The position numbers and the translations under genes were made by a program. Source: Balanoglossus misakiensis (taxonomy: Eukaryota; Animalia; Hemichordata). From it: a stretch of DNA of 64,000 nt. The notes beneath the pieces were generated by a model, which was not told the DNA's origin, searched no databases, and worked only from the letters and a program-made list of their open reading frames with translations. Below are positions 3 through 62,489 of this stretch, one piece after another. The stretch lies in the NCBI GenBank assembly GCA_040954595.2, contig JBECUI020000030.1:62001-126000 (forward strand), read 5' to 3'. Within the stretch, counting starts at the first letter, position 1. Each line of letters begins with the position of its first letter.

Positions 3-2087
3 GCAGGAAGAAATGGCAGCGAAGTATTAGTGCTTTCTCGGGCAAATAAGAGTACCAGAATATTTGACCACGTCGTGAATTCTTTAGCAAAGGGTGTACA
101 ACCCAATATCAAGTTGTTACAAGATGTAGGTTATATCTTGCGTACGACTGCTGTATATGGAAATGGAAAATTTGGGATAGCTGATTTTGAATCATTACGA
201 GATAACCCTGACTTTTGCTTAAGTTTTAGTGCTCAAATGTGTGCGGTGTATTTATTGAGAGAATTCAGTATCGATTGGGTACATTACCTTGCAAAGAAAA
301 AAGGAGGCGAGAAGGCAACGACACTGCATAAAGATTTACAGCGATTTTTAGGCACAGGCAATGCAACAGGGCTTGGTATGTCATTGTTTCTTATTAATCA
401 TCCTAAAGTTGTCGATGCGTGGTTATATCAAAGAGAAAAGGCACTTGCACAGGTATTATCACTTCCTATTACAGAAGAGGATAAAAACAAGTATATCACC
501 TTACTTCATCAAGCACGAAAGCATATCACCGAAGTTATTACGAGCGATCCTCATCAAAAAAACTTAAACCAAAAAGCAAAAGATGAATTACTTGAAATTA
601 TTTCTTCAGTAAAGCAGGCCTATCAAGAAAAATTATTTTGGAATTATCTAATTAATTTCATAGAACAGTACAGCTATGAAACGCAAGAGATAACGGTATC
701 ATGTTTAATTGATCTATGTCCACATCTCGTTGACGAATTTACCAAAAACATGAATGCCGACGAATCATATATGAGCATTTCTGGAATTAGTAAAAAAACA
801 CTTATTGATATACTAGAAACAAGATATGCGTGGGCTATTGCGATAGATTTTGAAAATCCTGATAATTCTTATTGGTTTTGGTATTCATCCGAAGATAAAG
901 AAGAACCTCGACTAGGGGTGCGTTACGAAGATGACGGGTACGAACTTGAACTCCCTCTTGATATTGCACGAAGAGTAGTTGCATTATACAAGTCGTTAAT
1001 AGATACCCCCGCAGAGTTTAGTTTGGCTGATTTTTTGCTTGTGCACCCGGAATATCGAAGCATAATACGCCGTGTGTACACCATGGGACAATGCAGACTT
1101 GGAGAAATACAGGCAAATTCTATAGGCAAAGAACTACTACCTATGGATTTTCTCCGAGCAAAACTTGCAATATTAGGAGCAACAAAATTTGATCCTCGTT
1201 CCGACAGGTGGGTACAAGTAACATTTTTTCAAGGAGCCCCACTTCTTGCAGATATTAGCACTGACGACTGGGCGTTCCCAACACTACCAGACATTTCTGA
1301 CGAATCATATCGTGTACATCATCACACCATCTCTCAGGATAAGGGATATAAAAGACGTGTTACGTACAATGAAATTCTTTTATATTGTAGCAGGGCGTTT
1401 AGAAGTCTTGGTCGAAAATGGGGAGACCCCGACCTTATTGCATCTTCGGTAGCAGATATAGAAATTATGGAAAAATCTGGTGTCGAAAGATTCGTGAAAT
1501 TTTTGCATTTGGTACAACAAGAGAATGAACATGATCCAATAATAACAAAACAAGAAAACAATATTATTCATGTAGACTTAGCTGGTGCGAGTGTTATGTC
1601 ATATTTATCAATCCTATTAGATTATACGATAGAACATTTTGAGTCTCATATTACCCTAAAAATTGTCAATGAACATAATAACTGGTTGGCGCTAGGAAGA
1701 ATTATGCAACTTCGTTTTGACAATTTTTATGTACAGACGATCTGGAAAGAAGAACATGCCCAGGAATTCGTAGAATACATATATGATTCTAATAATAAAA
1801 AATCGTATATTTATATTTCGGATCTTGATGAAGTACAACAACAGAATCTACAATTCCCCCTACAAGATAATGTGTTATATGTATGCCTCAACAAACTCCC
1901 TTTTACCAGTGTACTCGTAGACACATATCCAACCATAATACATGATGCACAGATTTTACAAAAAAGAAAACAGGCAATGCAACGTGGACTATATGTAAAC
2001 TCGGAGGATTGGACAATTATTCAACAAGCATCACGCACCCTTCTTGTAAGCAATTCGGAAAAATCTAAAAAACAAGCAGGGGCATAA
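3..2087 (+). CDS. Conserved hypothetical protein fused to a C-terminal DUF3726-like domain (5'-partial)
   Basis: The frame is open back to the window edge. The N-part has the LRTTAVYGNGKFG and SEDKEEPRLG motifs of a conserved proteobacterial hypothetical family. The C-part (YNEI..YCSRAFRSLGRKWG ... W..I...SRTLLVSNSEKSKKQAGA) resembles DUF3726. Confidence 0.6.
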   Translation, partial: AGRNGSEVLVLSRANKSTRIFDHVVNSLAKGVQPNIKLLQDVGYILRTTAVYGNGKFGIADFESLRDNPDFCLSFSAQMCAVYLLREFSIDWVHYLAKKKGGEKATTLHKDLQRFLGTGNATGLGMSLFLINHPKVVDAWLYQREKALAQVLSLPITEEDKNKYITLLHQARKHITEVITSDPHQKNLNQKAKDELLEIISSVKQAYQEKLFWNYLINFIEQYSYETQEITVSCLIDLCPHLVDEFTKNMNADESYMSISGISKKTLIDILETRYAWAIAIDFENPDNSYWFWYSSEDKEEPRLGVRYEDDGYELELPLDIARRVVALYKSLIDTPAEFSLADFLLVHPEYRSIIRRVYTMGQCRLGEIQANSIGKELLPMDFLRAKLAILGATKFDPRSDRWVQVTFFQGAPLLADISTDDWAFPTLPDISDESYRVHHHTISQDKGYKRRVTYNEILLYCSRAFRSLGRKWGDPDLIASSVADIEIMEKSGVERFVKFLHLVQQENEHDPIITKQENNIIHVDLAGASVMSYLSILLDYTIEHFESHITLKIVNEHNNWLALGRIMQLRFDNFYVQTIWKEEHAQEFVEYIYDSNNKKSYIYISDLDEVQQQNLQFPLQDNVLYVCLNKLPFTSVLVDTYPTIIHDAQILQKRKQAMQRGLYVNSEDWTIIQQASRTLLVSNSEKSKKQAGA

Positions 2088-2205: not shown

Positions 2206-2234
2206 TTGCCAGATGAAAAATTATATGCTACAAT
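2206..2234 (+). promoter_or_regulatory. Putative sigma70 promoter of the TRAP operon
   Basis: TTGCCA-17 nt-TACAAT with an extended TG. An AGTGA-N7-TCACT inverted repeat lies just downstream (~2258-2274). Confidence 0.45.
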
Positions 2235-2352
2235 TTATTATTATTATTATTTAAAAAAGTGATAAATTTTCACTGCACTATTATTTATGAAGTGTTTTCG
2301 TCAACTACTACACGTGTTGTTGGTAATGCCGGAAAAACAAAAGGAGGTTTTT

Positions 2353-3363
2353 ATGAAAAAATTGTTATACATCGTATTTTCGATAGTATTAGTTGTATCA
2401 TTTGTAGGATGCACACCAAGTGAGTCGGCAGAACAGGTCGAGACTCCAGTTGAGGTGCAAAAAGTTACTCTTAGGTTGGCATCGTCTGCTTCTCCCACTG
2501 AGGTGCGTTCCTTATCCATTGAGGAATACATAAAACCTGCAATAGCTGATTTCGCAAACTTAGAAACGTACTGGAGTTCAACGCTATTTAAGCAAGGCAC
2601 GGAACTTGAGGCAGTAGCCCGTGGAAACGTAGAAATGGTACTGGCTTCACCACAAGAATTATCTCAGTTTATACCCGAGTTTGCTATTTTTGCGACAGGT
2701 TATGTAATACGAGATGCGGCGCACCAAGTTGCCATTTTTAATGCTGGTTTTATGGATGAATTTAAGAAAAAAACCGAAGATATTCTTAATCTTAAGTTGT
2801 TGAGTATCATGTATCAAGGTCGGCGTAACTTAAATTTGAGAGGGGATAAAACAATTAACACCCCTGCAGATTTGAGTGGTGTGAAGTTGCGTATGCCCGG
2901 ATCGAAGGCTTGGCAATTTCTTGGCAGCGCACTTGGAGCGAATCCTACTCCCATAGCATTTGCAGAAGTATACACTGCGTTGCAATCAGGGGCTGTAGAC
3001 GGACAGGATAATCCTATCCCGACTACGGTTAACATGAAATTTTATGAAGTTACCGATCAGATTATTTTGACAGGACACTTAGTAGATTTCACGTACGTAT
3101 CCATTGCAAATGATGTATGGAATAGTCTTACTGCTGAACAACAACAGACATTGCAAGAAGCAGCAAATAAGGCAACCCAATCCTCGCTGGAAAAACAATT
3201 AGTCTTGGAAAAAGAGCTAATAACATACTTGGAAGAGCAGGGCTTACGCGTATACGCTCCGGATGTAGATGCATTTCGACAACATGTACAGGAAGTGTAT
3301 TTGAACTCAGAATTCTCTGCCGGATGGCCAAGCGGATTGTTGGAAAAGATAAACAATTTATAA
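2353..3363 (+). CDS. dctP: TRAP transporter substrate-binding protein (DctP family), lipoprotein
   Basis: AGGAGG RBS before ATG 2353; lipobox-like SFVGC; DLSGVKLRMP and EVYTALQSGAVDGQDNP motifs. Confidence 0.92.
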   Translation: MKKLLYIVFSIVLVVSFVGCTPSESAEQVETPVEVQKVTLRLASSASPTEVRSLSIEEYIKPAIADFANLETYWSSTLFKQGTELEAVARGNVEMVLASPQELSQFIPEFAIFATGYVIRDAAHQVAIFNAGFMDEFKKKTEDILNLKLLSIMYQGRRNLNLRGDKTINTPADLSGVKLRMPGSKAWQFLGSALGANPTPIAFAEVYTALQSGAVDGQDNPIPTTVNMKFYEVTDQIILTGHLVDFTYVSIANDVWNSLTAEQQQTLQEAANKATQSSLEKQLVLEKELITYLEEQGLRVYAPDVDAFRQHVQEVYLNSEFSAGWPSGLLEKINNL

Positions 3364-3384
3364 TTGTAGTATACTTCGTTATGT

Positions 3385-3930
3385 ATGGAACATAAAAAGG
3401 TACATAAAATTAAGAATGTACACAACTATATTGTTCATATAGTTAACTACATAAAATCTACCGCGAATTACATTGCAGCAATGATGCTCGTTTTTATTTT
3501 TCTAGCGTTTTGCGTCAATGTAATTTTGCGGTACACCTTAGGTATATCTTTTGGATGGATAGTTGAAGTAACCCTAATTTTGTGGCTCTGGGTGATTTTT
3601 CTTGGAGCAGGAATTTTCTTGGAAGATGAAGATCACGTATCCTTTATCTATATGTACAGGGCTTTCGGGAAAAAAGTACATTTCATTCTAAAAACATTAT
3701 CCTTTGCCATTGTAGCAATAGGTGGAATTATCATGATTCCACCAGTTTGGGATTACATTGACTTTTTGGCAATTAGAGAAAGCAACGTAATAGGTATGCC
3801 TATGAACTACGTCTTCTTTATTTACAAGATATTCTTAATTGCCTTGATAATGAAATATGGATACAAAACATTATTTAATATCCATAGATTTTATCATGAC
3901 TTCGTAAAAAACAAGAATAATAAGGAATAA
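3385..3930 (+). CDS. dctQ: TRAP transporter small permease
   Basis: 4 TM segments, NVILRY and HVS motifs, located between dctP and dctM. Confidence 0.88.
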   Translation: MEHKKVHKIKNVHNYIVHIVNYIKSTANYIAAMMLVFIFLAFCVNVILRYTLGISFGWIVEVTLILWLWVIFLGAGIFLEDEDHVSFIYMYRAFGKKVHFILKTLSFAIVAIGGIIMIPPVWDYIDFLAIRESNVIGMPMNYVFFIYKIFLIALIMKYGYKTLFNIHRFYHDFVKNKNNKE

Positions 3931-3953
3931 AAAGTAAAAGGAAGTATTAAAAG

Positions 3954-5249
3954 ATGGACTTAGTATTAATCACATTTGTAGTGTTGCTAGTTATTCTTGT
4001 ACTTCTAGAACTACCCATTTCAATTTCTATAATTTTTGCGGCAACCGGATTCCTACTTGTATCGGGTCAGGATTTATCTATCGCTGCAGAACAGTTATTG
4101 AATGCGTTATTTAATAACTACTTATTGCTTGCGGTGCCGTTGTTTATCATGTCGGCAAACTTCATGAATGCCTCTTCAATCACCGACAAACTGCTGGATT
4201 TTGCCCTCGCACTTGTTGGACGATTTAAGGGTGGGCTTGGTCATGTTAATATAGTACTTTCTCTTATATTTTCAGGCATGTCAGGATCCGCAGTTGCCGA
4301 TGTCGCGGGTATTGGAAAAATCATCATCCCTATGATGACAAAAGACAATAAGTACAGTAGAGGATACGCTGCGGCTATAACGGCGGCATCTTCTACAATA
4401 GGTCCCATTGTGCCCCCTTCAATTCCTATGATCTTATACGCGTTGGTTTCAAACGCTTCCATTGGATATTTGTTTTTGGGTGGCATACTTCCCGGTATTA
4501 TTATGGCGGTTGTATTGATGATTATTAATGCATACCTTGCTAAGAAGAACAATTTTTCTGTAGAAAAGGCACCACCACTAAGAGAATTGCCGAAAAAAAC
4601 ATTTATTGCACTGCCCTCGCTGATGATGCCTGTAATTTTGTTATACGGAATTTACGGCGGAGTAATGACGGCTACTGAAGCTGCCGCGATCGCTGCTCTT
4701 TATGCTTTGGCAATAGACGTTCTATTTTATCGAAGTTTAACTATCAAAAAATTTATAAAAGCAGTATCAGAAACTGCAAAAGCATCAGCTTCTGCCGGAT
4801 TTATTGTGGGAACCGCACTTATTATGAATTATGTAGTGGTAAGTCAAAATATACCCGATACATTATCCAATATTTTTGATGGTTTGAGCATTTCTCCTTT
4901 GCTGTTTATGTTTGCAATTAATCTGTTGGTATTATTTTTGGGATGTTTACTTGATGCTTCCGTTATCATATTAGTAATAATTCCTTTGTTTTTACCAACA
5001 ATCAATGCTCTAGGAATTGATGTGGTATATTTTGGTGTAGTGATAGTTATAAATTGTATGATAGGGCTTATCACGCCTCCATACGGGGTAATCATTCTTG
5101 TTATCAACTCTATTATGAAGATCCCGCTCGGGGAGATTATAAAAGAATTATGGCCATTTTTGCTCTCTCTGATTGGATTCTTGATACTTATAATAGTGTT
5201 TCCGGATATAGTATTGTTTTTACCCAGACTACTGGGCTATCAGGGATAG
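3954..5249 (+). CDS. dctM: TRAP transporter large permease
   Basis: FSGMSGSAVAD, IVPPSIPMILY and GLITPPYG motifs. Confidence 0.93.
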   Translation: MDLVLITFVVLLVILVLLELPISISIIFAATGFLLVSGQDLSIAAEQLLNALFNNYLLLAVPLFIMSANFMNASSITDKLLDFALALVGRFKGGLGHVNIVLSLIFSGMSGSAVADVAGIGKIIIPMMTKDNKYSRGYAAAITAASSTIGPIVPPSIPMILYALVSNASIGYLFLGGILPGIIMAVVLMIINAYLAKKNNFSVEKAPPLRELPKKTFIALPSLMMPVILLYGIYGGVMTATEAAAIAALYALAIDVLFYRSLTIKKFIKAVSETAKASASAGFIVGTALIMNYVVVSQNIPDTLSNIFDGLSISPLLFMFAINLLVLFLGCLLDASVIILVIIPLFLPTINALGIDVVYFGVVIVINCMIGLITPPYGVIILVINSIMKIPLGEIIKELWPFLLSLIGFLILIIVFPDIVLFLPRLLGYQG

Positions 5250-5257
5250 CACCCTTA

Positions 5258-6319
5258 TTATATGTCCTTTATGTATACCCTTTTGCCGTCTCGAGCAGAC
5301 AGATTAATAGCTCTAATAACTTCCATCACCTTCAAGCCATCTAATCCGGTAACAAGCGGGTTCACTTTACCTTGTATTACTTGAGCAAAATGTTCCAACT
5401 GCGCAATGAGAGGATCTTTGATCTGTTTCATAAATATTTCATTACTGATTGGTTTGAACCAATGGCGCTCTCCACTGTAATGCCATAAACGATTGTTCGG
5501 TATTTCTATGGACCCTTCAGTTCCACCGATCATACAATACAGCTGATCTGTTTTTGGATACGTTGGATTGTCCCCCGTCGTTAATTCCCAACTCCATGGC
5601 GACGGAATTGTATCCGACATATTAATAGTGCATAAAGCAGAATTTTCGAATTTTGCAATTACTACTGCGGTATCTTCTACCTCAAATTGTCTTGTAGCAT
5701 TGCTGGCATAGGAATTAAGATACTCGATATCGCCTATGTAATGTAAGAGTAAATCAATATCATGTGATAAATTTATGTTAATGGGACCTGCACCATGTTT
5801 CCGACGCCATCGATTTTCAAAATATTCATTGTTCTTGTAAAGCCAAAAATGGGTATGTACGGATACAATCTTCCCTAAACGACCACTAGACAACTGTTCT
5901 TTCGTTGCCTGCACAATACTATTAAATCTTCTATAATATCCCGTTAAGAGAGGAACCTTTTTAAGATCTGCCATATGTATGACTTCCTTGGCTTCTTTTA
6001 AGTCGGTTGCAAAGGGTTTCTCTACTAAAACAGGTATGCCTTTCTGTACACAAGGGCTTGTGTTTTTCATGTGAACCTCATTTGGAGTAGCTACTATGAC
6101 CCCATCCGGCTTCACGGAATCTATCATTCCTTCTATATTGTCAAAAAAGGGAATATTGTAGCTCTGGGCTATCTGTTTTCCTTTTTCAGTAATATCTACG
6201 ATTGCTACTACATTGATGCCTTGTGTTTCGATGGCTCGTTTTATATGTCGTATCCCAATAAGACCCGTACCTACGACTGCAATGTTAGTCAATTTTATAT
6301 CTCTTCTTCCTTTCCCCAT
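5258..6319 (-). CDS. Gfo/Idh/MocA family NAD(P)-dependent oxidoreductase
   Basis: VVGTGLIG Rossmann motif, VLVEKP, GYYRRF, HDID. Confidence 0.9.
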   Translation of the reverse strand: MGKGRRDIKLTNIAVVGTGLIGIRHIKRAIETQGINVVAIVDITEKGKQIAQSYNIPFFDNIEGMIDSVKPDGVIVATPNEVHMKNTSPCVQKGIPVLVEKPFATDLKEAKEVIHMADLKKVPLLTGYYRRFNSIVQATKEQLSSGRLGKIVSVHTHFWLYKNNEYFENRWRRKHGAGPININLSHDIDLLLHYIGDIEYLNSYASNATRQFEVEDTAVVIAKFENSALCTINMSDTIPSPWSWELTTGDNPTYPKTDQLYCMIGGTEGSIEIPNNRLWHYSGERHWFKPISNEIFMKQIKDPLIAQLEHFAQVIQGKVNPLVTGLDGLKVMEVIRAINLSARDGKRVYIKDI

Positions 6320-6328
6320 ACATGTTAT

Positions 6329-8107
6329 CTAATCCGTTGCTGTATGAGATATATTGCCCCCGGGTGAATATATATCAAGAATATTCCAATGCCCTGTTGT
6401 GGGGGTCGGATTGTTTTGCATGGCAACATCAATAACAGTCGGCTTTCCACTTTTTATCGCTTCAACTAAGGCGGGCTTAAACTCACTTGCCTTTTTAATT
6501 CTAATTCCCTCTACACCATATGCCTTGGCAATTTCGGCATAGTTGGTATCTGCCCGTTCCTTATTGTGTTTATCCACAAACAAGGTTCCGTATGTTACAC
6601 CGTAGTGAGCTTTTTGCAATCCCGCAATCGTCCCAAAGGCATTGTTGTTCATGACAATCCAAATTACATGCAAATTCAATTCCTTTGCCGTAGACAATAC
6701 GGCAGGATTTTGTCCAAAGCCCCCATCGCCTACCATCGACACCACAATTCTTGATGGTGCTGCCAATTTTGCTCCTACTGCTGCCGAAGGACCAAAGCCC
6801 ATTGTTGCACATCCACCCGGTATCAATATGCTATTCGGTGTAAGAATATCAAACTGTTGTCCTACACCATTTTTATTCCATCCAACATCTGTAGTAATTA
6901 TTGCATCATCAGGCAGAACATCTCTGGTATCTGCTAGGATACGCTCGGGCATCATTGGGAAGTTATCACTCACTGCCTGTGCATGAGTGCTTTGCTTGAA
7001 GTCTTGTTTGAACTTCTTTATTTTATCAGCTATGTCTTCTCTTTTAAATCCTGATGGGTATTTTTCTTTGAAAATCTTATTGATCAAAGCTAAAGACTTT
7101 TTCAAATCACCAATCGCGCCTATATGAGCAGGATAATTTCTACTTATCTCACATGCCTCAATGTCTATATGAATGAGTTTCGTAGAGTGTGGTATGTCAA
7201 AGGTATAGCCATCTTGCCACGAACTACAATCAGCTTCCTTAAATCTCGTTCCAAGTGCAAACAGATAATCGGCATTCAGACATGCCTGATTGACAAGTGA
7301 AGTACCCCAAAAACCAGTCATTCCCATGGCAAAGGGATGATTGTCCGGAATACAGCCTTTCCCCATCAGACTGTACGCAACGGGAATATGTGTATGATTA
7401 ACAAATTCTTCCAACTCACGCGATGCTCTTGCAAGAAGAACCCCCCCACCTGCGTATATTACAGGATTTTTTGCTTTTGCTAATGTTTCTACAATTTGTT
7501 CTGCAACATCATGTGATATACAAGGTTTTGATAACTGCTTTGTACCTGTAAGTCGTGCAAATAGTTGGGGATCAATGTCTTTAGAAAAAACATCCATAGG
7601 AACGTTGACCAATACAGGTCCTTGTTGTCCGCTTTCAGCTAATAAAAATGCCTTTTCCAAAATTTCAGGAAGTAAATCGGCTCTATCTACTCGCCATGCT
7701 CGCTTTACAAAGGGTTTATATATTTCATATTGAGACGCATCTGCATGAAGATTGACCTCCTGATGCGGGTGCTTCCCATAATAATGAGAAGGAATATCGC
7801 CTGCAATGACAACCATGGGGATACAATCAAGTGCTGCATTCAGTACGCCCGTCGTCGCATTAGTAAGCCCTGGGCTCAAATGTAATAAAAGAACACCTGC
7901 CTTGTCTAAAACTCTCGCATATGCATCAGCTGCATGCGCTGCGATCTGCTCGTGCCGAACCATTATAAAATCTATGTCGGATTCATCTAGTGCAGACAAC
8001 ACGGCTATATTCGTGTGTCCGCACAAGCCAAATACATGTTTGATTCCTCGCTTCTCGAGGTATTTCACCATTAATTGTGCTACCGTGTTTTTTCTATCTT
8101 GCATCAT
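6329..8107 (-). CDS. Thiamine-pyrophosphate-dependent enzyme (ALS/IolD/glyoxylate carboligase superfamily), substrate unknown
   Basis: FGLCGHTN, RHEQ and the GDGGF...NN TPP-binding motif. Confidence 0.88.
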   Translation of the reverse strand: MMQDRKNTVAQLMVKYLEKRGIKHVFGLCGHTNIAVLSALDESDIDFIMVRHEQIAAHAADAYARVLDKAGVLLLHLSPGLTNATTGVLNAALDCIPMVVIAGDIPSHYYGKHPHQEVNLHADASQYEIYKPFVKRAWRVDRADLLPEILEKAFLLAESGQQGPVLVNVPMDVFSKDIDPQLFARLTGTKQLSKPCISHDVAEQIVETLAKAKNPVIYAGGGVLLARASRELEEFVNHTHIPVAYSLMGKGCIPDNHPFAMGMTGFWGTSLVNQACLNADYLFALGTRFKEADCSSWQDGYTFDIPHSTKLIHIDIEACEISRNYPAHIGAIGDLKKSLALINKIFKEKYPSGFKREDIADKIKKFKQDFKQSTHAQAVSDNFPMMPERILADTRDVLPDDAIITTDVGWNKNGVGQQFDILTPNSILIPGGCATMGFGPSAAVGAKLAAPSRIVVSMVGDGGFGQNPAVLSTAKELNLHVIWIVMNNNAFGTIAGLQKAHYGVTYGTLFVDKHNKERADTNYAEIAKAYGVEGIRIKKASEFKPALVEAIKSGKPTVIDVAMQNNPTPTTGHWNILDIYSPGGNISHTATD

Positions 8108-9555
8108 TCTTCTCTATTCATCACCTTGCTGACATCAACATTATAAAATTCACCAAACAATTCTTTTTCATCAGGACGATCTTCTTTTATAGGAGAACTT
8201 ACCCACGTGTACTGCAGATAGTGCTTCAAATTAATATTTTCGTTCGTAACATTGCCACCCCAAACGCCACAGCCAAGCGAAGAGGTCATAGGCATGCCGT
8301 TCGTCCATGCACCGGCATTAGCCTTTGATTGTGGCTGCCGTACCATTATTCGACTAACGGGAGCCACCTTTGCAAGAGCATCGATATGCTTTTGATCGTG
8401 TGAATATATTCCGCACGAATGACCTTTGCCTGCGGTGTCATATATCTTTCGGACAGTATCAAGTGCTTCTGTAAAGGTTTCAAAATGATACAGTGCCATG
8501 ACGGTGGTAAGTTTCTCCATTGAGAACTTATGTTCTCTACCAATCTGATTGTGGTTTTCTACCATTAAAAACTTGGCATCGTCCGGTATTTCAAACCCTG
8601 CATGCTTGGCAATTTGTTGCGGGGGACAGGCTATAGTTTCAAATGTCCTATTACCATCTTCATTCCACATGACGTCCTGTATGAGTTGCTTTTCCTGTGC
8701 TGAACAGAGATACCCTCCTTCAGCCTGCAGTTTTTGAACCATTTCCTTGTATATGGATTGGTCAATAATTATGTTTCCATCAGCTGAACAACCAGAACCA
8801 AAATCAGATGTTTTGCTTATTCTAATATTTCGAGCAGCTATTTCAAGATCAGCAGAATAATCGATTACCATTGTAGAGTTTCCTGCTCCAACACCATACG
8901 CGGGTTTCCCGGAACTATAGGCAGATTTCACCATCGGTTTTCCACCTGTCGCCAGTGTTAAATCACATTGCGCCATTAATTCTTTAGTAGCCGGTATAGA
9001 TGGCTCTTCCATTACCTGAAATAAATCCGCAGGCGCACCTACGGCAATGCATGCTGCTCGCAATACATCAACCATATGTGCTGTCGTTTTTTTTGTCCTC
9101 GGATGGGGAGAAAATATAACCGCGTCTTTTGCCTTCGCTGCGTATACCGCTGTTACGGGGGGAGTTAGTGCGGGATTGGTCATGGGAATTACAGACGCTA
9201 TAACCCCAACAGGTTTGGCATACTTTGCAATCCCTTTATTTACATCTTCCTCTACTTTCCCAATGCTCTTTTGCCTAAGAGCATCTCTTAATACACCGTG
9301 TACTTTGAATCTTTTAGCAGGACGACCTTTCCTGTCTCCTACGCCACTCTCATCTACACCCAACTGAGCCAGATGAGTAAACACCTGCTCGTTCGATGAA
9401 TACCAAGCAAGTGCCTGACATAATCTGTCAACCTGTTCTTGATTCCAATGAGCAATTTCCTTCATGGCATTTCTTGCCCTCTCCATCTTGGCCTCTACCA
9501 TCGCTTTCTGCTCCGGCGTGAGTATATATTTTTTGTCTATTTTTTTTTGCTCCAT
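8104..9555 (-). CDS. CoA-acylating aldehyde dehydrogenase (SauS/AdhE N-domain-like)
   Basis: PMTNP, ATGG, GVGAGN, catalytic Cys in SGCSAD, EKL, LGCGVWGGN. Confidence 0.87.
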   Translation of the reverse strand: MEQKKIDKKYILTPEQKAMVEAKMERARNAMKEIAHWNQEQVDRLCQALAWYSSNEQVFTHLAQLGVDESGVGDRKGRPAKRFKVHGVLRDALRQKSIGKVEEDVNKGIAKYAKPVGVIASVIPMTNPALTPPVTAVYAAKAKDAVIFSPHPRTKKTTAHMVDVLRAACIAVGAPADLFQVMEEPSIPATKELMAQCDLTLATGGKPMVKSAYSSGKPAYGVGAGNSTMVIDYSADLEIAARNIRISKTSDFGSGCSADGNIIIDQSIYKEMVQKLQAEGGYLCSAQEKQLIQDVMWNEDGNRTFETIACPPQQIAKHAGFEIPDDAKFLMVENHNQIGREHKFSMEKLTTVMALYHFETFTEALDTVRKIYDTAGKGHSCGIYSHDQKHIDALAKVAPVSRIMVRQPQSKANAGAWTNGMPMTSSLGCGVWGGNVTNENINLKHYLQYTWVSSPIKEDRPDEKELFGEFYNVDVSKVMNREE

Positions 9556-9577
9556 TTATGCCTCCTATAAATATTTT

Positions 9578-10441
9578 TTATATTAATCTATCAGGTACGC
9601 TTTTATATTTTGATTTCACGCGCCAACATTCCTCTAATAAAAGATAATTTTTTGTGTCTTGTAAAATATATTTCGCATACTCCAAAGATCCTAAGTGTCG
9701 ATGTAATCGTTCGTTTGGAATTTCCAGCGAAAAAACACTACAATGAATGTTGTTTAAATAACTCAGTACGGCAATATCACCTCTCCCCGCCGGATATCTT
9801 GCTTCTCGTGCTATAAATTTTTGCCCCTTCATGCTTCTAATTCCATGACCTTTGGCATCACATAAATGAACAAAATGTAGATGTTTTTGATCTATCATTT
9901 TTATTTCTTCAGGGTCAGTTTTTGCCCTATATAGATGCAATAAATCCAGTAATATGCCGGAATTTTCTGCATTCCCATCTAATACAAACTTATTTATGGA
10001 GTTAATATCCGGGAGAGATGACCAAGGAAGCATTTCTAATACTACTATTATGTTGTATTGTTTTGCCAACGTACATAACTGTTGAAACTTTTGTAAACAA
10101 ACTTCCAAATTTGTTCCATGCACCTGACAGATAGCATACTTGGCACCTATCTGTGCCCCTGTATCTAAAATCGTTTCAAATTCCGCAAGTATATCGGTCT
10201 CATCTTTTATTGCCAGTAGTTCGATATCAAAAATCTTAACCTTGCTGTCAGCCAAAATTTTTTGACATTCTGTAATCGCATATGTATCACCTGCAAGTTT
10301 GTATGCATCTTCCTCTTTAGTAACAGCACGCAAACGCGGACTTACATAGTCATAACCCGCTATGTCGGCAATCTTTATCAGATTAAATATTGTCTCTTCT
10401 ATCAAACTTAAATGTGCTAACGAAAACTTATTATCTATCAT
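9578..10441 (-). CDS. Xylose-isomerase-like TIM-barrel protein (sugar phosphate isomerase/epimerase/dehydratase family)
   Basis: Start at MIDNKFSLAHLS overlaps the upstream stop. Metal-ligand motifs LEMLPW, DLLH, HLCDA, LEIP. Confidence 0.82.
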   Translation of the reverse strand: MIDNKFSLAHLSLIEETIFNLIKIADIAGYDYVSPRLRAVTKEEDAYKLAGDTYAITECQKILADSKVKIFDIELLAIKDETDILAEFETILDTGAQIGAKYAICQVHGTNLEVCLQKFQQLCTLAKQYNIIVVLEMLPWSSLPDINSINKFVLDGNAENSGILLDLLHLYRAKTDPEEIKMIDQKHLHFVHLCDAKGHGIRSMKGQKFIAREARYPAGRGDIAVLSYLNNIHCSVFSLEIPNERLHRHLGSLEYAKYILQDTKNYLLLEECWRVKSKYKSVPDRLI

Positions 10442-11258
10442 CGCTATTGTTCTTGTGATTATAAAGCGGCATAAAACTCCTCGGTATGGGGCCTTTATTT
10501 TTGATGCCACTTTGCATTTCTTCCCAGGCATGTGCCAGAATGCCCACACCACGAGACAAACAAAATAAACCACGACAGAGAGGGGCGGGTATCCCAAGCT
10601 CACAAAAAATAATTGCGGTCGCTCCGTCTACATTCATTGGAATAGGAACAGACCTATTTTTATTAATTTGACGCTGCACTTCTAGGGCAATGTCCTTAAA
10701 CAGACCTTTTATGTGTCCATTACTTGCATATTGTTCAACAATTTCAACTGTCTTAAGAGCACGAGGATCCGCAGGTTTATGAAACCTATGTCCATACCCC
10801 GGAATCCTTTTCCCATGTTGTTGCACATATGCCGAAAGATTGTTTTCTACACTCTCTTCTAAACCAGCTCCATTATTCATATCATTTTCAATTGAATAAA
10901 AAAGCTCCGCACAACCCTGTCCTGCACCACCATGATTGTCACCAAGGACATTGATGGCACTTCCTAATACATTGTTCATACTTATTCCGCAGGTAGCTGC
11001 CATTCGAGCAATGGCAATGGATGGAGCTTGGGGTCCGTGATCGACAGACATGACCATTGCAACCTCAAAGAGTCGAGACTCTTCCTGAGTAGCGTTTTTT
11101 CCCATCACCATAAACAACATCATTTGGGCAAATGACTTTGTCTCCATCAAATCCTCTATTGGAGAGCCACGAAAACTAATTTTCCCGGGCTTCATGTCTA
11201 TAATCGAATTTTCCCACCACTTAACCGTCTTTAACTCGGCAATGTCAGCATCTTTCAT
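10431..11258 (-). CDS. Citryl-CoA lyase-like protein (citrate synthase fold)
   Basis: DHGPQAPS, HGGAG, PGYGHRFH..DPR and NVDG motifs; GAGG RBS before ATG 11258. Confidence 0.85.
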   Translation of the reverse strand: MKDADIAELKTVKWWENSIIDMKPGKISFRGSPIEDLMETKSFAQMMLFMVMGKNATQEESRLFEVAMVMSVDHGPQAPSIAIARMAATCGISMNNVLGSAINVLGDNHGGAGQGCAELFYSIENDMNNGAGLEESVENNLSAYVQQHGKRIPGYGHRFHKPADPRALKTVEIVEQYASNGHIKGLFKDIALEVQRQINKNRSVPIPMNVDGATAIIFCELGIPAPLCRGLFCLSRGVGILAHAWEEMQSGIKNKGPIPRSFMPLYNHKNNSDDR

Positions 11259-11485
11259 CGAGACCTCGCTATAAATTAGCAAAGATCGAACTTCCAAACC
11301 AAGACCTAACTAACCTTTGTTTGTTATCCAATCAATGACCAATTTACACGTGTATTGTAACAAAAAAAATTGTGATTATCAAGTCTTCTTTGCGTTTCTT
11401 TTTGCCAAGCTTCCCCTCGCCAACGTGCAAAAACAATATTGACAATCTGTACTTACCTGTGCTATAACCTACACCATAGATCTAT

Positions 11486-13078
11486 ATGATATATTTTCAA
11501 GATAGACACACGCACGAACCGTATGACCTCAGCAATGTCGGGATACAGAAACCTGTGGTGTTCAGGAACCTTCCTGTGCCAGTACTGTATGAAGAGGCCC
11601 TCCAGTATGAAAAGGGATCGTACATAGCAGCTTCGGGCGCACTCATTGTTTCTTCCCATAAGTACAAGGGAAGGGTTCCGAAAGAAAAACGGATCGTCAA
11701 AAATGATCTAAGTAAAAACCTTGTTTATTGGGGAGATATTAATATCCCCATATCCGAACATGCTTTTTGCATCAATAGAGAAAGAGCAATAGACTACATA
11801 AACTCTAGAAATCGTGTGTACGTTGTAGATGGATACGCTGGGTGGGATATGTCATATCGTATTAAGGTTCGCGTTATTTGTACACGGGCGTATCATGCAT
11901 TATTTATGACTAATATGCTTATTATGCCCTCTGATCAAGAACTTGTCGACTTTCAAGAAGCAGACTACACTATTTTTAATGCGGGGGTTTTTCCTGCTAA
12001 TAGGTATACAGAAGGCATTACATCAGACGCCTCCATTATTTTGAATTTTCAATCGCAGGAAATGATCATTATGGGTACCGAATATGCCGGAGAAATGAAA
12101 AAGGGTGTGTTTACCATTATGAATTATCTCATGCCCCAAAAAGGCGTATTACCTATGCACTGTGCTGCTAATACGAATTTGGAAGGGAGCGATACCGCAC
12201 TCTTTTTTGGACTTTCAGGTACAGGAAAAACTACACTCTCTAGTGCAGAAGACCGTTTACTTATTGGAGATGACGAGCATTGTTGGGCAGATAATTCAGT
12301 ATTTAACATAGAAGGGGGATGTTATGCAAAGTGTATCAACCCACCAGATCATATAAAACAATGTATAAAGTTTGGAACGCTTCTAGAAAATCTAGTATAC
12401 GATAAAAAAAGTCGCATAGTTGATTACAACGACGAAAGCATTACTAATAATACAAGAGCTTCGTACTCGCTTAATAGAGTAAAACAGATAAAAGTACCGT
12501 GTATTGCGCCACCTCCTAATAATATTATTTTCCTTACATGTGATGCGTACGGCGTCTTGCCTCCTCTTGCCAAACTGAATGAAAAACAAGCAATGTATCA
12601 TTTTGTGAATGGCTATACTTCGAAAGCCCCCAATACCGAATTTGGTGTTACAAAACCAACTGCGACGTTTTCTGCATGTTTTGGTGAAGTCTTTTTGCCT
12701 CTCGACCCTGTTCTCTATGCAAGATTGCTTGCAAAAAAAATTAAGCAGACGAATGCTTCTGTTTGGCTAGTAAACACGGGTTGGATTGGTGGAGGCTTTT
12801 CTGATGGTACAAGAATAGCATTGGCTGATACGATACAAATTGTGGCCAGTATATGTAACCACACTATAAACAAATCTCAGTTTGTTCAAGATCCTCTGTT
12901 TCAGTTTCAAGTATGTACCGGCTGTGAAGGCGTATCTCATAGTCTTGATCCGAGGAAACTATGGAACGACACGAATCACTACACAGAACAAGCAAAAAAG
13001 CTTATATCAATGTTCCATGAAAACATGAAAAAATACCGAGATACTGAATTTATTAGCGGTGGTCCGGTTAAGATATAA
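11486..13078 (+). CDS. pckA: Phosphoenolpyruvate carboxykinase (ATP)
   Basis: YAGEMKKG, FFGLSGTGKTTLS, LIGDDEH, NIEGGCYAK, NTRASY. Confidence 0.95.
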   Translation: MIYFQDRHTHEPYDLSNVGIQKPVVFRNLPVPVLYEEALQYEKGSYIAASGALIVSSHKYKGRVPKEKRIVKNDLSKNLVYWGDINIPISEHAFCINRERAIDYINSRNRVYVVDGYAGWDMSYRIKVRVICTRAYHALFMTNMLIMPSDQELVDFQEADYTIFNAGVFPANRYTEGITSDASIILNFQSQEMIIMGTEYAGEMKKGVFTIMNYLMPQKGVLPMHCAANTNLEGSDTALFFGLSGTGKTTLSSAEDRLLIGDDEHCWADNSVFNIEGGCYAKCINPPDHIKQCIKFGTLLENLVYDKKSRIVDYNDESITNNTRASYSLNRVKQIKVPCIAPPPNNIIFLTCDAYGVLPPLAKLNEKQAMYHFVNGYTSKAPNTEFGVTKPTATFSACFGEVFLPLDPVLYARLLAKKIKQTNASVWLVNTGWIGGGFSDGTRIALADTIQIVASICNHTINKSQFVQDPLFQFQVCTGCEGVSHSLDPRKLWNDTNHYTEQAKKLISMFHENMKKYRDTEFISGGPVKI

Positions 13079-36903: not shown

Positions 36904-38356
36904 CTAACTATCTAGATATTGTGCAAGCGCCGTAGGCAATGGACCGTATTCTCCCTCTTCCCGAAACATATTCCTATTAATGAGTTTTTGCTCAAGTTCA
37001 AGTATCCCGATATTCTCTATGCGCTTTCCCGTATCAAAGGGATCATTCGTTTCCCGTATCCATTGCTGCAATCGTGCTTCCAGTGCTTCTTCAATCTCAG
37101 CAAACTTCGGATTTCCTGCTACATTGTTCATTTCCCACGGATCATTTGTTCGATCAAAAAGAATTTTCTTCCCCTTGGGGATCTGCCAGCGGGCATAGAT
37201 ATACAGTTCATTCCGCACCCCTCTCCACATGCCTACCCATTCGGAACGATTAGGCCAGCCTGTCGCAAGGTTTTGCAGATACACCGAATCATGCGGAGAT
37301 TGCAATCCTTTTTGCAGGTAGGGAGTATTATCTATCCCTTGACATTCCTCTGGAACGTCTAGTCCACATAGCCCGAGCAAGGTAGGCATAATATCAACGC
37401 TACTAAAGAAACCTGCATACCGATTATCTTGTCGTTCCAGCTGTGGATCCCATAGAACAAAGGGGATATGGATGGATTCCTCATGTGGAGTACCCTTTGC
37501 CGCCCTCATAGTAGGGTGTAACCAATCAAATCCGGGCTGCCCATAGCCATGGGCACCGAGATGATCCCCATGATCGGATGCAAAACAAATGATAGTATTT
37601 TCATACAACCCGTTTTTCTTGAGATACTGCATCAGCCGTCCAAACTGATCGTCCAACGAGGTAATCATGCCATAATAATCTGCCCGTTCCTGTCGTTCAA
37701 AGGGTTCAAACTGACAAGGAACATTTTCGCCTACTTCTATCGTATCCGGATTATATGTATTATACCTCTGGGGATAGATTCCATACCACCGCTCTTTTTT
37801 GTTATCTATAATATTTGGACCCCCAGGAAGGATGAGGTGGTCCCCATGAAAGAAAAACCGCAAATGGATTTTTACCCTGATCGGTAATATACTGTTGAAC
37901 AAGATCGAGTTCTCTTTCCGGTGCATAGGTAACCATAGGATACGGACCTTTTTCGTTATGATAATAATGGGCATTATAATAGTCGTGCACACAGTTATAT
38001 GCATAGAGATGATCAAATCCGTACCGTTTTTCTTTAGGATACGGACCGTATCCTAAATGCCACTTCCCCACATAGGCAGTGTTATAACCCTGCTGCTTCA
38101 ACAGCTGTGGAAGATATGTCTGTCCATCTTTTAATGCGTATTCGTTGCATATAACTCCGTTCGCATGCGAATACTTCCCCGTCAGTAATTGCCCACGAAA
38201 CGGTGCACAGAGTGGACAACTCGCATAGGCGTTGTCAAAACTGATCCCCTCGGCAATAAACCGATCTATATGCGGTGTTTGAACATGCTTGTTGCCATTA
38301 CCGCCAATACAATCATAGCGCAGTTGATCTGCAAAAACAAAAATTATATTTTTCAT
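36904..38356 (-). pseudogene. Sulfatase, split by one frameshift near 37820-37840 (genuine or sequencing error)
   Basis: The N-part has ADQLR, CAPFR (CxPxR), GKWHL and WGPPH. The C-part, in another frame, has SDHG and DPWEMNN. The frames switch around a G5 run. Confidence 0.8.
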
Positions 38357-52779: not shown

Positions 52780-54167
52780 ATGAAACAAGATATAACAGTT
52801 ATGAAGTTTGGAGGAAGTTCTCTTGCAAACGATGTAGCTATAAAAAAAGTTACTAACATAATTAAAACAAAGTATAAGAGTACGAAGGAAATTATAGTTG
52901 TATTATCTGCTATGAAAGGTACCACCGATATGCTTATGCAGGCTGGGGAATTAGCGGGAGACGGCAACCCTGCATATAAGGATACTCTTTCCGGTCTTCA
53001 AGATAAACATACACGTGTTATTGATAAACTGTTTGAAGACCATAATGAGGTCCGACAAGCAGTATCACACTTGTTCTCCGATCTGGAAAAAATTATTATA
53101 TGGCATATACCTCATTAAAGAATGCTCCCCCATTTCTCGTGCCTGTATTGCAGGGTTTGGCGAACAACTCTCCTGTATCATTTTTAGCTATTATCTCAGT
53201 ACTCATACTGTGCCCGCTCGCTATGTTGATGCACGCACAATGATTATTGTATCTTCCACCACAGAAGTCGTTGATACCGCCATTAGCTATGCCGCTATTT
53301 CCGAACAATTACAGGACCGAACGAACATACCAGTTGTTCCCGGCTATATTGCATCAACTGATACCGGGAAGTCCGCAACACTTGGCGAAACGGATCGGAT
53401 TACACCGCAGCACTCATTGGGGCCGCCCTGTCGGCACATGTTGTGGAAATATGGACTGATGTCGACGGCTTCTTTAGTGCCGATCCCAACTATGTCCCAC
53501 AAGCATTTGTTTTACCCAAAATATCCATGCAAGAGGCTATGGAACTTTCACATTTTGGGGCAAGCGGTTGTGCATCCATATACGCTCATTCCCCTTCTCG
53601 AACACAGTATACCTGTTTATGTCCGCAATACATTTCAACAGATCACATGGGCACACATATTGTGCATGAAAAAGTACATCACTCACATGCAATAACCGGT
53701 CTTGCCTCCATTGAACGGGTAGCCATTATTAACATCGAAGTCCACGCATGATTGGGAGCAAAGGCATTGCTGCCCGAATCTTTACCGCTCTGAACCATGC
53801 CGGTGTCAATATAATGATGATCTCACAAGCTTCAAGTGAACATAGTATCTGTATTGTATGTCAAGAAGATGATGTCCCCGCCGCCCTAACCGGTATGCGA
53901 AAGGAATTGGAAAATGACATCCGTACGCAACGTATTACCCATCTGACCCCGGTCTATAATCTTGAAATGGTTGCAATAGTCGGGTTAAACATGCGTGGAT
54001 ACCCCGGCATTGCAGGAAAGTTATTTTCTGCCTTGGGTGATGTCGGAATAAATATCCTCGCAATTGCACAAGGATCATCAGAAACAAATATATCGTTTAT
54101 CATTCAGAGTAATGAACGTGAACTCGTTCTCAGGACGGTTCATCATACGTTTTTTGAAAAGGAATAA
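52780..54167 (+). pseudogene. lysC: Aspartate kinase with two ACT domains, about 5 frameshifts as sequenced
   Basis: VMKFGGSS, SAMKGTTD, TLG./NGSDYTA, IWTDVDG..SADP, EAMELSHFGA, ISQASSE and IAQGSSE spread over four ORF fragments. Confidence 0.85.
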
Positions 54168-55493
54168 TGCTTTTATATAGTACACGAAACCATGCATATA
54201 CCATAACTTTTGATGATGCCGTCCTGCAAGGATTGGCACCGGACGGCGGACTCTTCCTGCCCGTTTCGACTCCCGACCTACGGCATCTTATTGCAGAATT
54301 CGACAGCAAAACGGATTTCAAAACTATTGCTTCGAGTATGTTACAAGCTCTCTTTCCTGAATCTTTTGATGAAAAAAGAGCAGAAGATATTTGCAAACGT
54401 GCATTTCCCTTTGCACCTCGTCTTCTCCCTCTGCGAAAAAATATCTCCCTTTTGGAATTGTTTCATGGCCCATCTTCTGCATTCAAAGATTTTGGAGCCT
54501 CATTTCTTGCCACGATAATGGAAGACTACTCAATAAAAAAGTGGACATGCCAACAATTCTTACGGCAACAAGCGGCGATACTGGGAGTGCCGTCATTCAA
54601 GCATTTCTCAACAAGAAGAACATTATGGTTGTTGTCCTGTACCCCTCAGGGAGAATTAGCCCGACACAAGAGAAACAAATTAGTACCCACAGTGGAAATG
54701 TTGTTGCCGTTGAAGTCCAGGGCACATTGATGATTGCCAACGGCTGGTCAAGGAAGCCTTTAATAATAAGAAACTTAGACAAGAGTTTGCCCTGACATCA
54801 GCAAACAGTATTAACATTGGCAGACTTATTCCACAATCATTTTACTATCTCTACGCAGATACCCGTCTCCAACCGGAAGAACGAACCCGCCGTATTTTTA
54901 CTGTTCCAAGTGGTAACTTCGGCAATCTTACAGCAGGGGTTCTTGCATGGTGTTGGGGAATGTCTGCACCCTATTTCCTAGCAGCAAGCAATGCAAATGA
55001 TGTCGTCCCCCTGTATCTGGAAACTGGTTCCTTTAACCCCAAGTCCTCAGTTCAAACCCTAGCCAATGCAATGGACGTAGGGGATCCAAGTAATTTTGAG
55101 CGTCTGCTTGCCATTAGTGAAGAACAAAACCAGCCAATGACAGAATTTCTGCAAGGAGAAGTTGTACACGACCAGGCCATTAAAGAAACCATACAACAAT
55201 ATTATTCCGAATACAATATTTTCCTCTGCCCCCATACTGCGGCAGGAATCTGCGCGAGTGAACGATTATTACGACGATCGCCGGAAGCACCATATATCGT
55301 TTCGTTGGCAACCGCACATCCCGGAAAATTCGCAGAGATTATAGAAGATTGTACGCAGCTGTCTCCGCCCATACCCGAGAAAATCGCAGAGTTGCTATCT
55401 CGAGAAAAACAAAGCATTTTGGCAGAAGCGACACTTGATGCACTAGAACAGATACTTCGGAATAAATGCAGGTATACACCAGAAAAAACTTGA
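54167..55493 (+). pseudogene. thrC: Threonine synthase, at least 2 frameshifts as sequenced
   Basis: YSTR, GLAPDGGL, ELFHGPSSAFKDFG, ATSGDTG, SANSINIGRL, VPSGNFGN, CPHTA, ATAHP.KF. Confidence 0.88.
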
Positions 55494-61889: not shown

Positions 61890-62489
61890 ATGAAGGTGCT
61901 ATTTGCTAGTTTTAATGAACATAAAACAAAAGAAATGCAGTATTTATTAGCAGGGCATACAATAATTTGCCCTGCTGATCTTAATTTAGAGTATCAAAAA
62001 GAAGAGACGGGAAACAGTTTTGAAGAGAATGCACTCCAAAAAGCAAAATACATGTCCGTATTAATACAAGAAAGCAAACACGAGTTTGCTAATATGCCTA
62101 TTCTTGCTGAAGACTCCGGCCTCTGTGTTCTTGCTCTGGACGGTCGTCCGGGCATTTATTCCGCCCGATTCGGTCGTGAACAAGGGATCAACACGGATTC
62201 GGAACGGGTACAGTTCTTATTAGAACAAATGCAAGGGAAAAAAGACCGACAGGCATTTTATGTCTGTGCACTAGTTTGCCTCCATGATGCAGAACGATTT
62301 ACAATTATTCGTGAAACATGGCATGGTGAAATTTCAGATCGCGCTATTTCCGGGACTACCGGGTTTGGATATGACCCGGTGTTTTACTTGCCGGATCTAA
62401 ATAAAACTGTCTCCTGCATTCCTGAAGCCGAAAAACATCGTAGATCGCACAGAGCACAAGCAACAAGAACCCTATTGCGTATTATCTAA
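61890..62489 (+). CDS. rdgB: Non-canonical purine NTP pyrophosphatase (RdgB/HAM1)
   Basis: S.N.HK, ENALQKA, EDSGL, PGIYSAR, GFGYDPVF, SHR. Confidence 0.93.
   Translation: MKVLFASFNEHKTKEMQYLLAGHTIICPADLNLEYQKEETGNSFEENALQKAKYMSVLIQESKHEFANMPILAEDSGLCVLALDGRPGIYSARFGREQGINTDSERVQFLLEQMQGKKDRQAFYVCALVCLHDAERFTIIRETWHGEISDRAISGTTGFGYDPVFYLPDLNKTVSCIPEAEKHRRSHRAQATRTLLRII

Follow-up and report, generated by a model that had tools for sequence, protein, structure and literature searches.

What does a five-enzyme operon degrade when it faces a carboxylate importer and carries no kinase, IolB or aldolase among its genes by Pfam and NCBIfam scans? The question is raised by a cluster on contig JBECUI020000030.1 of the Balanoglossus misakiensis assembly GCA_040954595.2, within the 64,000-nucleotide stretch at positions 62,001 to 126,000 that was analysed here as a whole (the window). 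Five tightly packed minus-strand genes, encoding a Gfo/Idh/MocA dehydrogenase (Gfo), a thiamine diphosphate (ThDP)-dependent enzyme, a coenzyme A (CoA)-acylating aldehyde dehydrogenase (ALDH), a TIM barrel and a citryl-CoA-lyase-like protein, converge on dctPQM, which encodes a tripartite ATP-independent periplasmic (TRAP) transporter (Table 1). An open reading frame (ORF) check finds all eight genes from dctP to the lyase gene uninterrupted, with spacings of -11 to +23 bases between neighbours and 8 bases between the convergent dctM and Gfo genes. The layout and the family assignments of an earlier note on this DNA are thereby confirmed, as the Pfam and NCBIfam scans concur with them for all eight genes.

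The module probably imports quinate, or a stereoisomer or look-alike, and cleaves it without oxygen and without aromatisation to acetyl-CoA and 2-oxoglutarate; the substrates and products named here are predictions from gene families, conserved catalytic residues and co-occurrence. The earlier note had arrived at the same substrate class, catabolic direction and final three steps, and these stand; its dehydration to a 3,4-dione is less supported, and its ThDP enzyme proves to be neither IolD nor Xsc. The module is real, conserved and apparently undescribed. The open literature yielded no description of the gene set, of quinate catabolism through homocitryl-CoA cleavage, of homocitryl-CoA lyase activity or, under the terms used, of the catabolism of 3-deoxy-D-manno-oct-2-ulosonate (Kdo), subscription papers lying mostly outside the search.

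In the proposed pathway, a cyclitol carboxylate would be imported by DctPQM and one of its ring hydroxyls oxidised by the Gfo to a dehydroquinate; elsewhere, an AroE/YdiB-type or Zn-dependent dehydrogenase would take the Gfo role, and a dehydroquinase working in reverse would admit shikimate. The IolI-like TIM barrel would then shift the ketone, converting 3-dehydroquinate to 4-dehydroquinate, or alternatively carry out an IolE-type dehydration to the 3,4-dione. With the 4-ketone, attack of ThDP at C4 would lead to retro-benzoin cleavage of C3-C4, loss of the C5 hydroxyl and phosphoketolase-type hydrolysis of the acyl-ThDP; with the dione, an IolD-type hydrolysis would cut C3-C4, and the regiochemistry of IolD would also yield the correct aldehyde end. 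Both routes would give homocitrate semialdehyde, which the ALDH would convert to homocitryl-CoA for retro-Claisen cleavage by the lyase to acetyl-CoA and 2-oxoglutarate. The isomerase route would bypass a dione liable to aromatise. A route via 3-dehydroshikimate was rejected on paper, since it would leave no tertiary alcohol for the lyase.

The substrate class is well supported by the company the ThDP gene keeps. Homologous loci are labelled L001 to L068 and genomes G001 onward; the ThDP enzyme search of the genome collection gave 36 loci, and a pool of 60 was formed from L001-L036 and L044-L068, leaving out L065, which is identical to L020, and L037-L043, which are short duplicates. BLAST served to cluster the ORFs, family scans were run on representatives, and three Gfo labels were assigned by hand. 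The earlier note had proposed looking around the ThDP gene for shikimate/quinate dehydrogenases (SDH, AroE/YdiB-type), and they are present in 28/60 loci, with AroQ in 12/60, AroD in 8/60 and any of the three in 35/60; QuiC-like proteins occur in 26/60, and any of these four markers in 50/60. As the carrier genomes, of 2.2-5.8 Mb, have only 1-2 SDH copies (5/5 genomes tested), we estimate chance proximity at ~1%. The cluster copy is extra to another in G003 and the only one in G005, and among the first 36 loci five have aroK/aroB-like genes close by, so some cluster copies may also serve biosynthesis.

The order of the last steps is indicated by replacements within the pool. An acylating ALDH is encoded in 49/60 loci, an IolI-like TIM barrel in 45/60 and a CoA-transferase III in 13/60, the ALDH and the transferase occurring together in 4/60; of the 11 loci lacking an acylating ALDH, nine have a CoA-transferase, mostly alongside a plain ALDH. 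Citryl-CoA-lyase-like proteins (28/60) and 3-hydroxy-3-methylglutaryl-CoA (HMG-CoA)-lyase-like proteins (23/60) are mutually exclusive (both together in 0/60), and the lyase type changes between several clades of a quick ThDP tree. These lyase and ALDH/CoA-transferase replacements give strong support to an order of aldehyde, then CoA ester, then retro-Claisen cleavage. Both lyase folds cleave tertiary 3-hydroxyacyl-CoA esters, so the substrate should bear a tertiary alcohol, which in quinate is at C1.

The window lyase passes the cut-off of the 'citryl-CoA lyase' family (PRK06224.1-1, 365 against 261) and is predicted to act on homocitryl-CoA; His74, His109, His157, Arg166, Asp211 and Arg236 are invariant in 29/29 sequences. 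The ALDH lies below the family cut-offs given in Table 1, with the acylating SauS (NF047625) nearest, and its Cys256 is invariant in 48/48.

By sequence, the ThDP enzyme is a new candidate for ring cleavage and is neither IolD nor Xsc. Five orthologues score 228-259 against IolD (TIGR04377, cut-off 715), for which the true IolD of G002 reaches 783, and 256-291 against Xsc (TIGR03457, cut-off 676; window protein 281), and they likewise fall below the PRK07525 cut-off of 620. Outside the cluster, G002 carries true IolD and Xsc genes and G004 a true Xsc gene; the window protein is 24% identical to the true IolD of G002. Against acetohydroxyacid synthase (AHAS, TIGR00118) it scores 406 bits (cut-off 538) with a differing Y-P-G-G loop, and against PDB 2PGN only 156 bits, below AHAS. 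The enzyme forms a clade separate from AHAS, IolD and Xsc. The remark of the earlier note that the motif is nearer that of IolD than Xsc holds for the loop after the first strand, G-H-T-N in the window enzyme and G-H-G-N in true IolD with the histidine in common, together with a His-bearing insertion near residues 115-123 found in both and in neither AHAS nor Xsc. Residues His31, Glu53, His76, His115, His121 and the GDG...NN motif are invariant in 58/58 sequences, and conservation is strong across SDH-type and Gfo-type loci.

ThDP-dependent C-C cleavage of a six-membered ring, as predicted here, has a precedent in the ThDP enzyme CDH. According to PMC12247030, cyclohexane-1,2-dione is the ring that CDH opens, and the H28A/N484A variant turns to carboligation instead, marking His28 and Asn484 as key; PMC11331486 also names the enzyme. 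Unlike that dione, the substrate predicted here would be polyhydroxylated and carboxylated. The window enzyme keeps invariant His31, His76 and Asn487/488, of which His31 and Asn487/488 putatively correspond to His28 and Asn484 of CDH.

The TIM barrel is closer to IolI than to IolE. A profile of 23 sequences searched against PDB ranks IolI (1I60) best with 83 bits (E 1.5e-22), followed by Lmo2234 (81 bits), QuiC1 (49 bits), AsbF (37 bits) and ketose 3-epimerases, with IolE (3CNY) last at 18.5 bits (E 0.009). Only 2/23 members match IolE TIGR04379 (E ~0.003), and the IolE of G002 has no significant BLAST match among the TIM barrels of the loci. Residues E136, D166, D195, R212 and E240 are invariant in the 23 sequences; E136, D166 and E240 were weighed against the two-glutamate metal site of IolI. 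The window protein is a single domain, not a TIM plus HPPD-like fusion, and scores 19 bits against QuiC (NF042435, cut-off 1200). Because the family is far more IolI-like than IolE-like, the intermediate is no less likely to be a 4-ketone than the 3,4-dione of the earlier note; we lean slightly toward a ketol isomerase, with a dehydratase nearly as probable. For the dehydratase speak the TIM hits after the IolI-like pair, which are dehydratases, and the QuiC-N-type TIM that substitutes in L008, L013 and L068. In L018, L031, L032 and L033, which lack the IolI-like TIM barrel, a small Cupin_2 protein adjoins the ThDP or ALDH gene; it is a generic Cupin_2, for which no tie to ketoisomerases was found. 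The Gfo scores 124 bits against IolG (TIGR04380, cut-off 355), with GxGxxG, EKP and His186 conserved across homologues.

Relatives of the enzyme core occur in several phyla, strict anaerobes among them. ThDP loci are found in Spirochaetota, Pseudomonadota, Thermodesulfobacteriota, Bacillota, Fusobacteriota and Actinomycetota, among them the anaerobes Desulforhopalus, Geosporobacter, Anaerosphaera and a Fusobacterium metagenome-assembled genome (MAG), and marine bacteria are abundant among the carriers. The gene is present in 7/190 genomes of the phylum of G003, 18/301 sampled genomes of the family of G002 and 2/301 genomes of the class of G001; in a candidate scoring, 7448/8000 reached E<=1e-150, clade membership of the lower ranks being left unchecked. 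The closest relative, L001, is a Spirochaetaceae MAG with 62-84% identity across all eight proteins and the same eight genes in another order, plus GntR. L002, the closest relative outside the spirochaetes, shares the five enzymes and adds an SDH passing PRK12549 (242 against 235). A plasmid search with the ThDP enzyme gave three records, of which the one examined, Azoarcus sp. KH32C, carries an operon that encodes SDH and AroD along with a split pair of QuiC-like proteins.

The importer provides the main evidence against quinate. DctP, DctQ and DctM are encoded in one operon, and R127 and R149 of DctP are invariant in 109 aligned sequences; the conserved arginine of TRAP DctP proteins binds the carboxylate, and this DctP is predicted to bind a cyclitol carboxylate. 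Its fold is predicted with a pLDDT of 94 from an alignment and 34 from the single sequence. The closest solved relative is PDB 4PF6, RD1_0742 of Roseobacter denitrificans (402 bits, 59% identity, Z 38.6), and binders of sialic acid come next among its structural neighbours. The DctP of L059, a full Rhodobacteraceae cluster, scores 502 bits against 4PF6, which therefore probably comes from the same cluster type; according to bioRxiv 10.1101/2021.12.03.471092, the Q and M partners of RD1_0742 have 180 and 431 residues, close to those of the window. Among loci with DctP homologues of at least 40% identity, SDH, AroQ or AroD occurs in 10/19 and any of the four markers in 18/19. RD1_0742 reportedly co-purified with Kdo, which makes Kdo the main rival to quinate. 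If Kdo or another 3-deoxy-2-ulosonate from lipopolysaccharide or algal scales were the substrate, decarboxylation by the ThDP enzyme would give a 2-deoxy-aldose, and acylation and retro-aldol cleavage would release acetyl-CoA; the sialic-acid neighbours, the Gfo in place of an SDH at the window locus and the marine carriers would all fit. However, this chemistry would lead to a secondary 3-hydroxyacyl-CoA, a poor match to both lyase folds, and leaves the SDH, AroQ and QuiC-like genes of 18/19 loci with the same DctP type unexplained. Since E. coli makes Kdo, and Kdo shares C(OH)(COO-)-CH2-CHOH-CHOH with quinate, the co-purification may be mimicry, and we consider this substrate unlikely. The same chemistry on another cyclitol, such as a quinate epimer or a marine cyclitol carboxylate that would give a different hydroxy-tricarboxylic CoA ester at the Gfo-type locus, has a similarly small chance. 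It could account for the Gfo standing in for SDH here, for the loci with both (L002, L020, L027, L050 and L058), for the extra Gfo cassettes of some Rhodobacteraceae loci and for marine carriers of a pathway for quinate, a mainly land-plant compound; yet the SDH and Gfo/Zn-dependent dehydrogenase classes tend to replace one another (both in 10 loci, one class only in 41), and the high conservation of the ThDP enzyme extends over the two types.

The textbook quinate route runs through QuiA, QuiB and QuiC to protocatechuate ring fission and needs aromatisation and oxygenases. Under an explanation that we hold to be quite improbable, quinate would follow this route and the ThDP/ALDH/lyase trio would act on a by-product or on some unrelated acid, as the QuiC-like fusions and the KH32C operon might suggest. 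PcaH is present in 10/18 Rhodobacteraceae carriers, so the aromatic route can coexist with the module; it is missing at cut-off in the other 8/18 and below cut-off in all five first genomes (including G001, G002, G003 and G005), while LigA was found in 1/5 genomes tested. The QuiC-like proteins (e.g. L052:2910-4802 and L059:4136-5974) are TIM plus HPPD-like fusions that score 453-520 against the QuiC cut-off of 1200, and their reaction may be other than protocatechuate formation; they are absent from the window and from the anaerobe loci. Of the single-contig genomes G369 and G371, neither has PcaH or LigA, and G371 nonetheless has a QuiC-like gene. A sulfonate pathway of Xsc/SauS type, or a biosynthetic route run in reverse to 3-dehydroquinate, would draw on the SauS-like ALDH and on the aroK/aroB-like neighbours. 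Both are extremely unlikely: Xsc and SauS scores fall below cut-off and G002 and G004 keep true Xsc genes apart from the cluster, while dedicated importers are common (DctP in 34/60 loci, TctC in 11/60) and hydrolytic ring cleavage is effectively irreversible.

Besides the 4PF6 ligand and PcaH, several observations weigh against quinate cleavage by this module. SDH, dehydroquinase and QuiC-like genes are all absent from the window locus and from L001, so quinate is assigned here from relatives; nine neighbour proteins of homologous loci (three GntR, SDH, QuiC-like, AroQ, AroD, the HMG-CoA lyase and CoA-transferase III) gave no tblastn match in the window at E<=0.01. The IolI-like TIM is missing in 15/60 loci and both lyases in 9/60, three pooled loci being shorter than 5 kb, and the loci are phylogenetically clumped, so that Fisher values for the co-occurrence counts, which ignore kinship, come out too significant. 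There is also a stereochemical tension: citrate-synthase-fold enzymes usually take the (S) form, whereas C3-C4 cleavage of 3-dehydroquinate would give (R)-homocitryl-CoA, which suits HMG-CoA-lyase-fold enzymes. A cassette of two extra Gfo genes around a 211-242 aa protein lies inside the cluster in L050 and L055-L058 (e.g. L056:3572-6678) and hints at further substrates; the protein between the two Gfo genes matches nothing in Pfam or NCBIfam, and its Atlas lead is an aldos-2-ulose dehydratase/isomerase cupin (score 0.94; family on 24% of the members of that Atlas cluster).

With quinate as the substrate, the module would resemble known systems in part. In its first half it would work like myo-inositol catabolism (IolG, IolE/IolI, IolD, IolB, IolC, IolJ, IolA), which likewise combines oxidation by a Gfo-family enzyme with a TIM barrel, a ring-cleaving ThDP enzyme and an ALDH that acylates CoA, but no cluster enzyme reaches an Iol cut-off; the TIM is IolI-like rather than IolE-like, no kinase or aldolase is encoded, the ending would be retro-Claisen and uptake is of TRAP type. 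Citryl-CoA, HMG-CoA and citramalyl-CoA lyases perform the retro-Claisen cleavage of tertiary hydroxyacyl-CoA esters predicted here, with catalytic residues kept, although the CoA ester would here come from a ring-derived aldehyde via the acylating ALDH. The hydroaromatic pathway shares its entry enzymes SDH and dehydroquinase with many homologous loci; the module would need no aromatisation or dioxygenase, and anaerobes as well as genomes lacking PcaH or LigA carry its core.

Plants provide quinate and shikimate as an abundant source of carbon, and dietary chlorogenic acid releases quinate as well. According to references in PMC3035301 and PMC2822220, Ilyobacter insuetus and Propionivibrio limicola are strictly fermenting hydroaromatic specialists; the latter source describes acetate and propionate formation for the genus Propionivibrio and no use of external acceptors by P. 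limicola. It is conceivable, at somewhat less than an even chance, that the module represents a widespread oxygen-independent quinate/shikimate route, with an IolI-type enzyme, a phosphoketolase-like ThDP clade and two unrelated homocitryl-CoA lyases, that underlies these fermentations and is used by marine and gut bacteria. To our knowledge, no genes have been assigned to the quinate/shikimate fermentation of I. insuetus or P. limicola. Conversion of quinate to acetate, butyrate and CO2 via 2-hydroxyglutarate balances at 28 electrons with none left over, and marine strains studied by Brune and Schink in 1992 reportedly form acetate and butyrate with no aromatic intermediate. The HGD-D family is present in 4/5 genomes tested, though not in G001; it is common in such taxa, so its presence does not discriminate and lends weak support. 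If true, the quinate reading would supply candidate genes for anaerobic quinate fermentation, a five-enzyme hypothesis open to direct reconstitution, a ThDP clade whose chemistry may be new and, in either of two folds, a predicted homocitryl-CoA lyase that serves catabolism; thousands of 'acetolactate synthase' labels, and possibly the 4PF6 ligand, would need revision.

Table 1. Cluster genes and possible expression signals, in window coordinates.
Feature	Position	Strand	Evidence
dctP, TRAP solute-binding protein, 336 aa from ATG 2353	2353-3363	+	Pfam DctP
dctQ, TRAP small permease, 181 aa	3385-3930	+	Pfam DctQ
dctM, TRAP large permease, 431 aa	3954-5249	+	Pfam DctM; TIGR00786 above cut-off
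Gfo/Idh/MocA NAD-dependent dehydrogenase, predicted ring-hydroxyl oxidation	5258-6319	-	Pfam
ThDP-dependent enzyme, predicted ring-cleaving hydrolase	6329-8107	-	Three TPP Pfam domains
CoA-acylating ALDH (SauS/EutE-like), predicted to form homocitryl-CoA	8104-9555	-	SauS 453, cut-off 600; EutH_ACDH 327, cut-off 620
AP_endonuc_2 TIM barrel, IolI-like, 287 aa from ATG 10441; predicted ketol isomerase or dehydratase	9578-10441	-	PF01261
'Citryl-CoA lyase' of citrate-synthase fold, 275 aa, predicted to cleave homocitryl-CoA	10431-11258	-	PRK06224.1-1
Sigma-70-like promoter match, extended -10, ahead of dctP	2206-2234	+	Consensus scan 10/12; weak
Sigma-70-like promoter match, extended -10, ahead of lyase gene	11354-11382	-	Consensus scan 10/12; weak
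Near-palindrome, possible operator, dctPQM operon start	2309-2318		Pattern common to both operon starts
Palindrome directly downstream of lyase-operon -10 box, possible operator	11345-11354		Pattern common to both operon starts

An AAGGAGG resembling a ribosome-binding site precedes dctP. The promoter matches are graded weak because the whole scan gave 28 sites against 31.7 in shuffles, the best ones including one per operon head. The palindrome at both operon starts is a possible shared operator; the pattern was picked post hoc, after being noticed, a third copy falls inside a coding region, no GntR homologue was found in the window, and L001 gave no exact copy.

The cluster is flanked by a 685-aa ORF that runs to the window edge (30-2087, plus strand; Pfam gives a weak DUF3726 match and nothing above cut-off) and by an ATP-dependent PEP carboxykinase gene divergent from the enzyme operon (11486-13078, plus strand). 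Neither has a homologue in any of the 36 related loci, so the cluster boundaries are correct. An IS3 transposase and RHS genes lie downstream of the Azoarcus plasmid copy (L068:16674-23392), and a group II intron reverse transcriptase adjoins the cluster in L015 (1216-2643), consistent with mobility. Methyl-accepting chemotaxis proteins adjoining the cluster in L011:1895-3289, L016:18072-19754, L020:13883-15610 and L030:12150-13424 are candidate receptors for its substrate. Elsewhere in the window, a sulfatase and a threonine synthase are each split into two ORFs and an amino-acid-kinase ORF is apparently partial (36904-38356, 53015-53695 and 54167-55493); these look like pseudogenes or assembly frameshifts.

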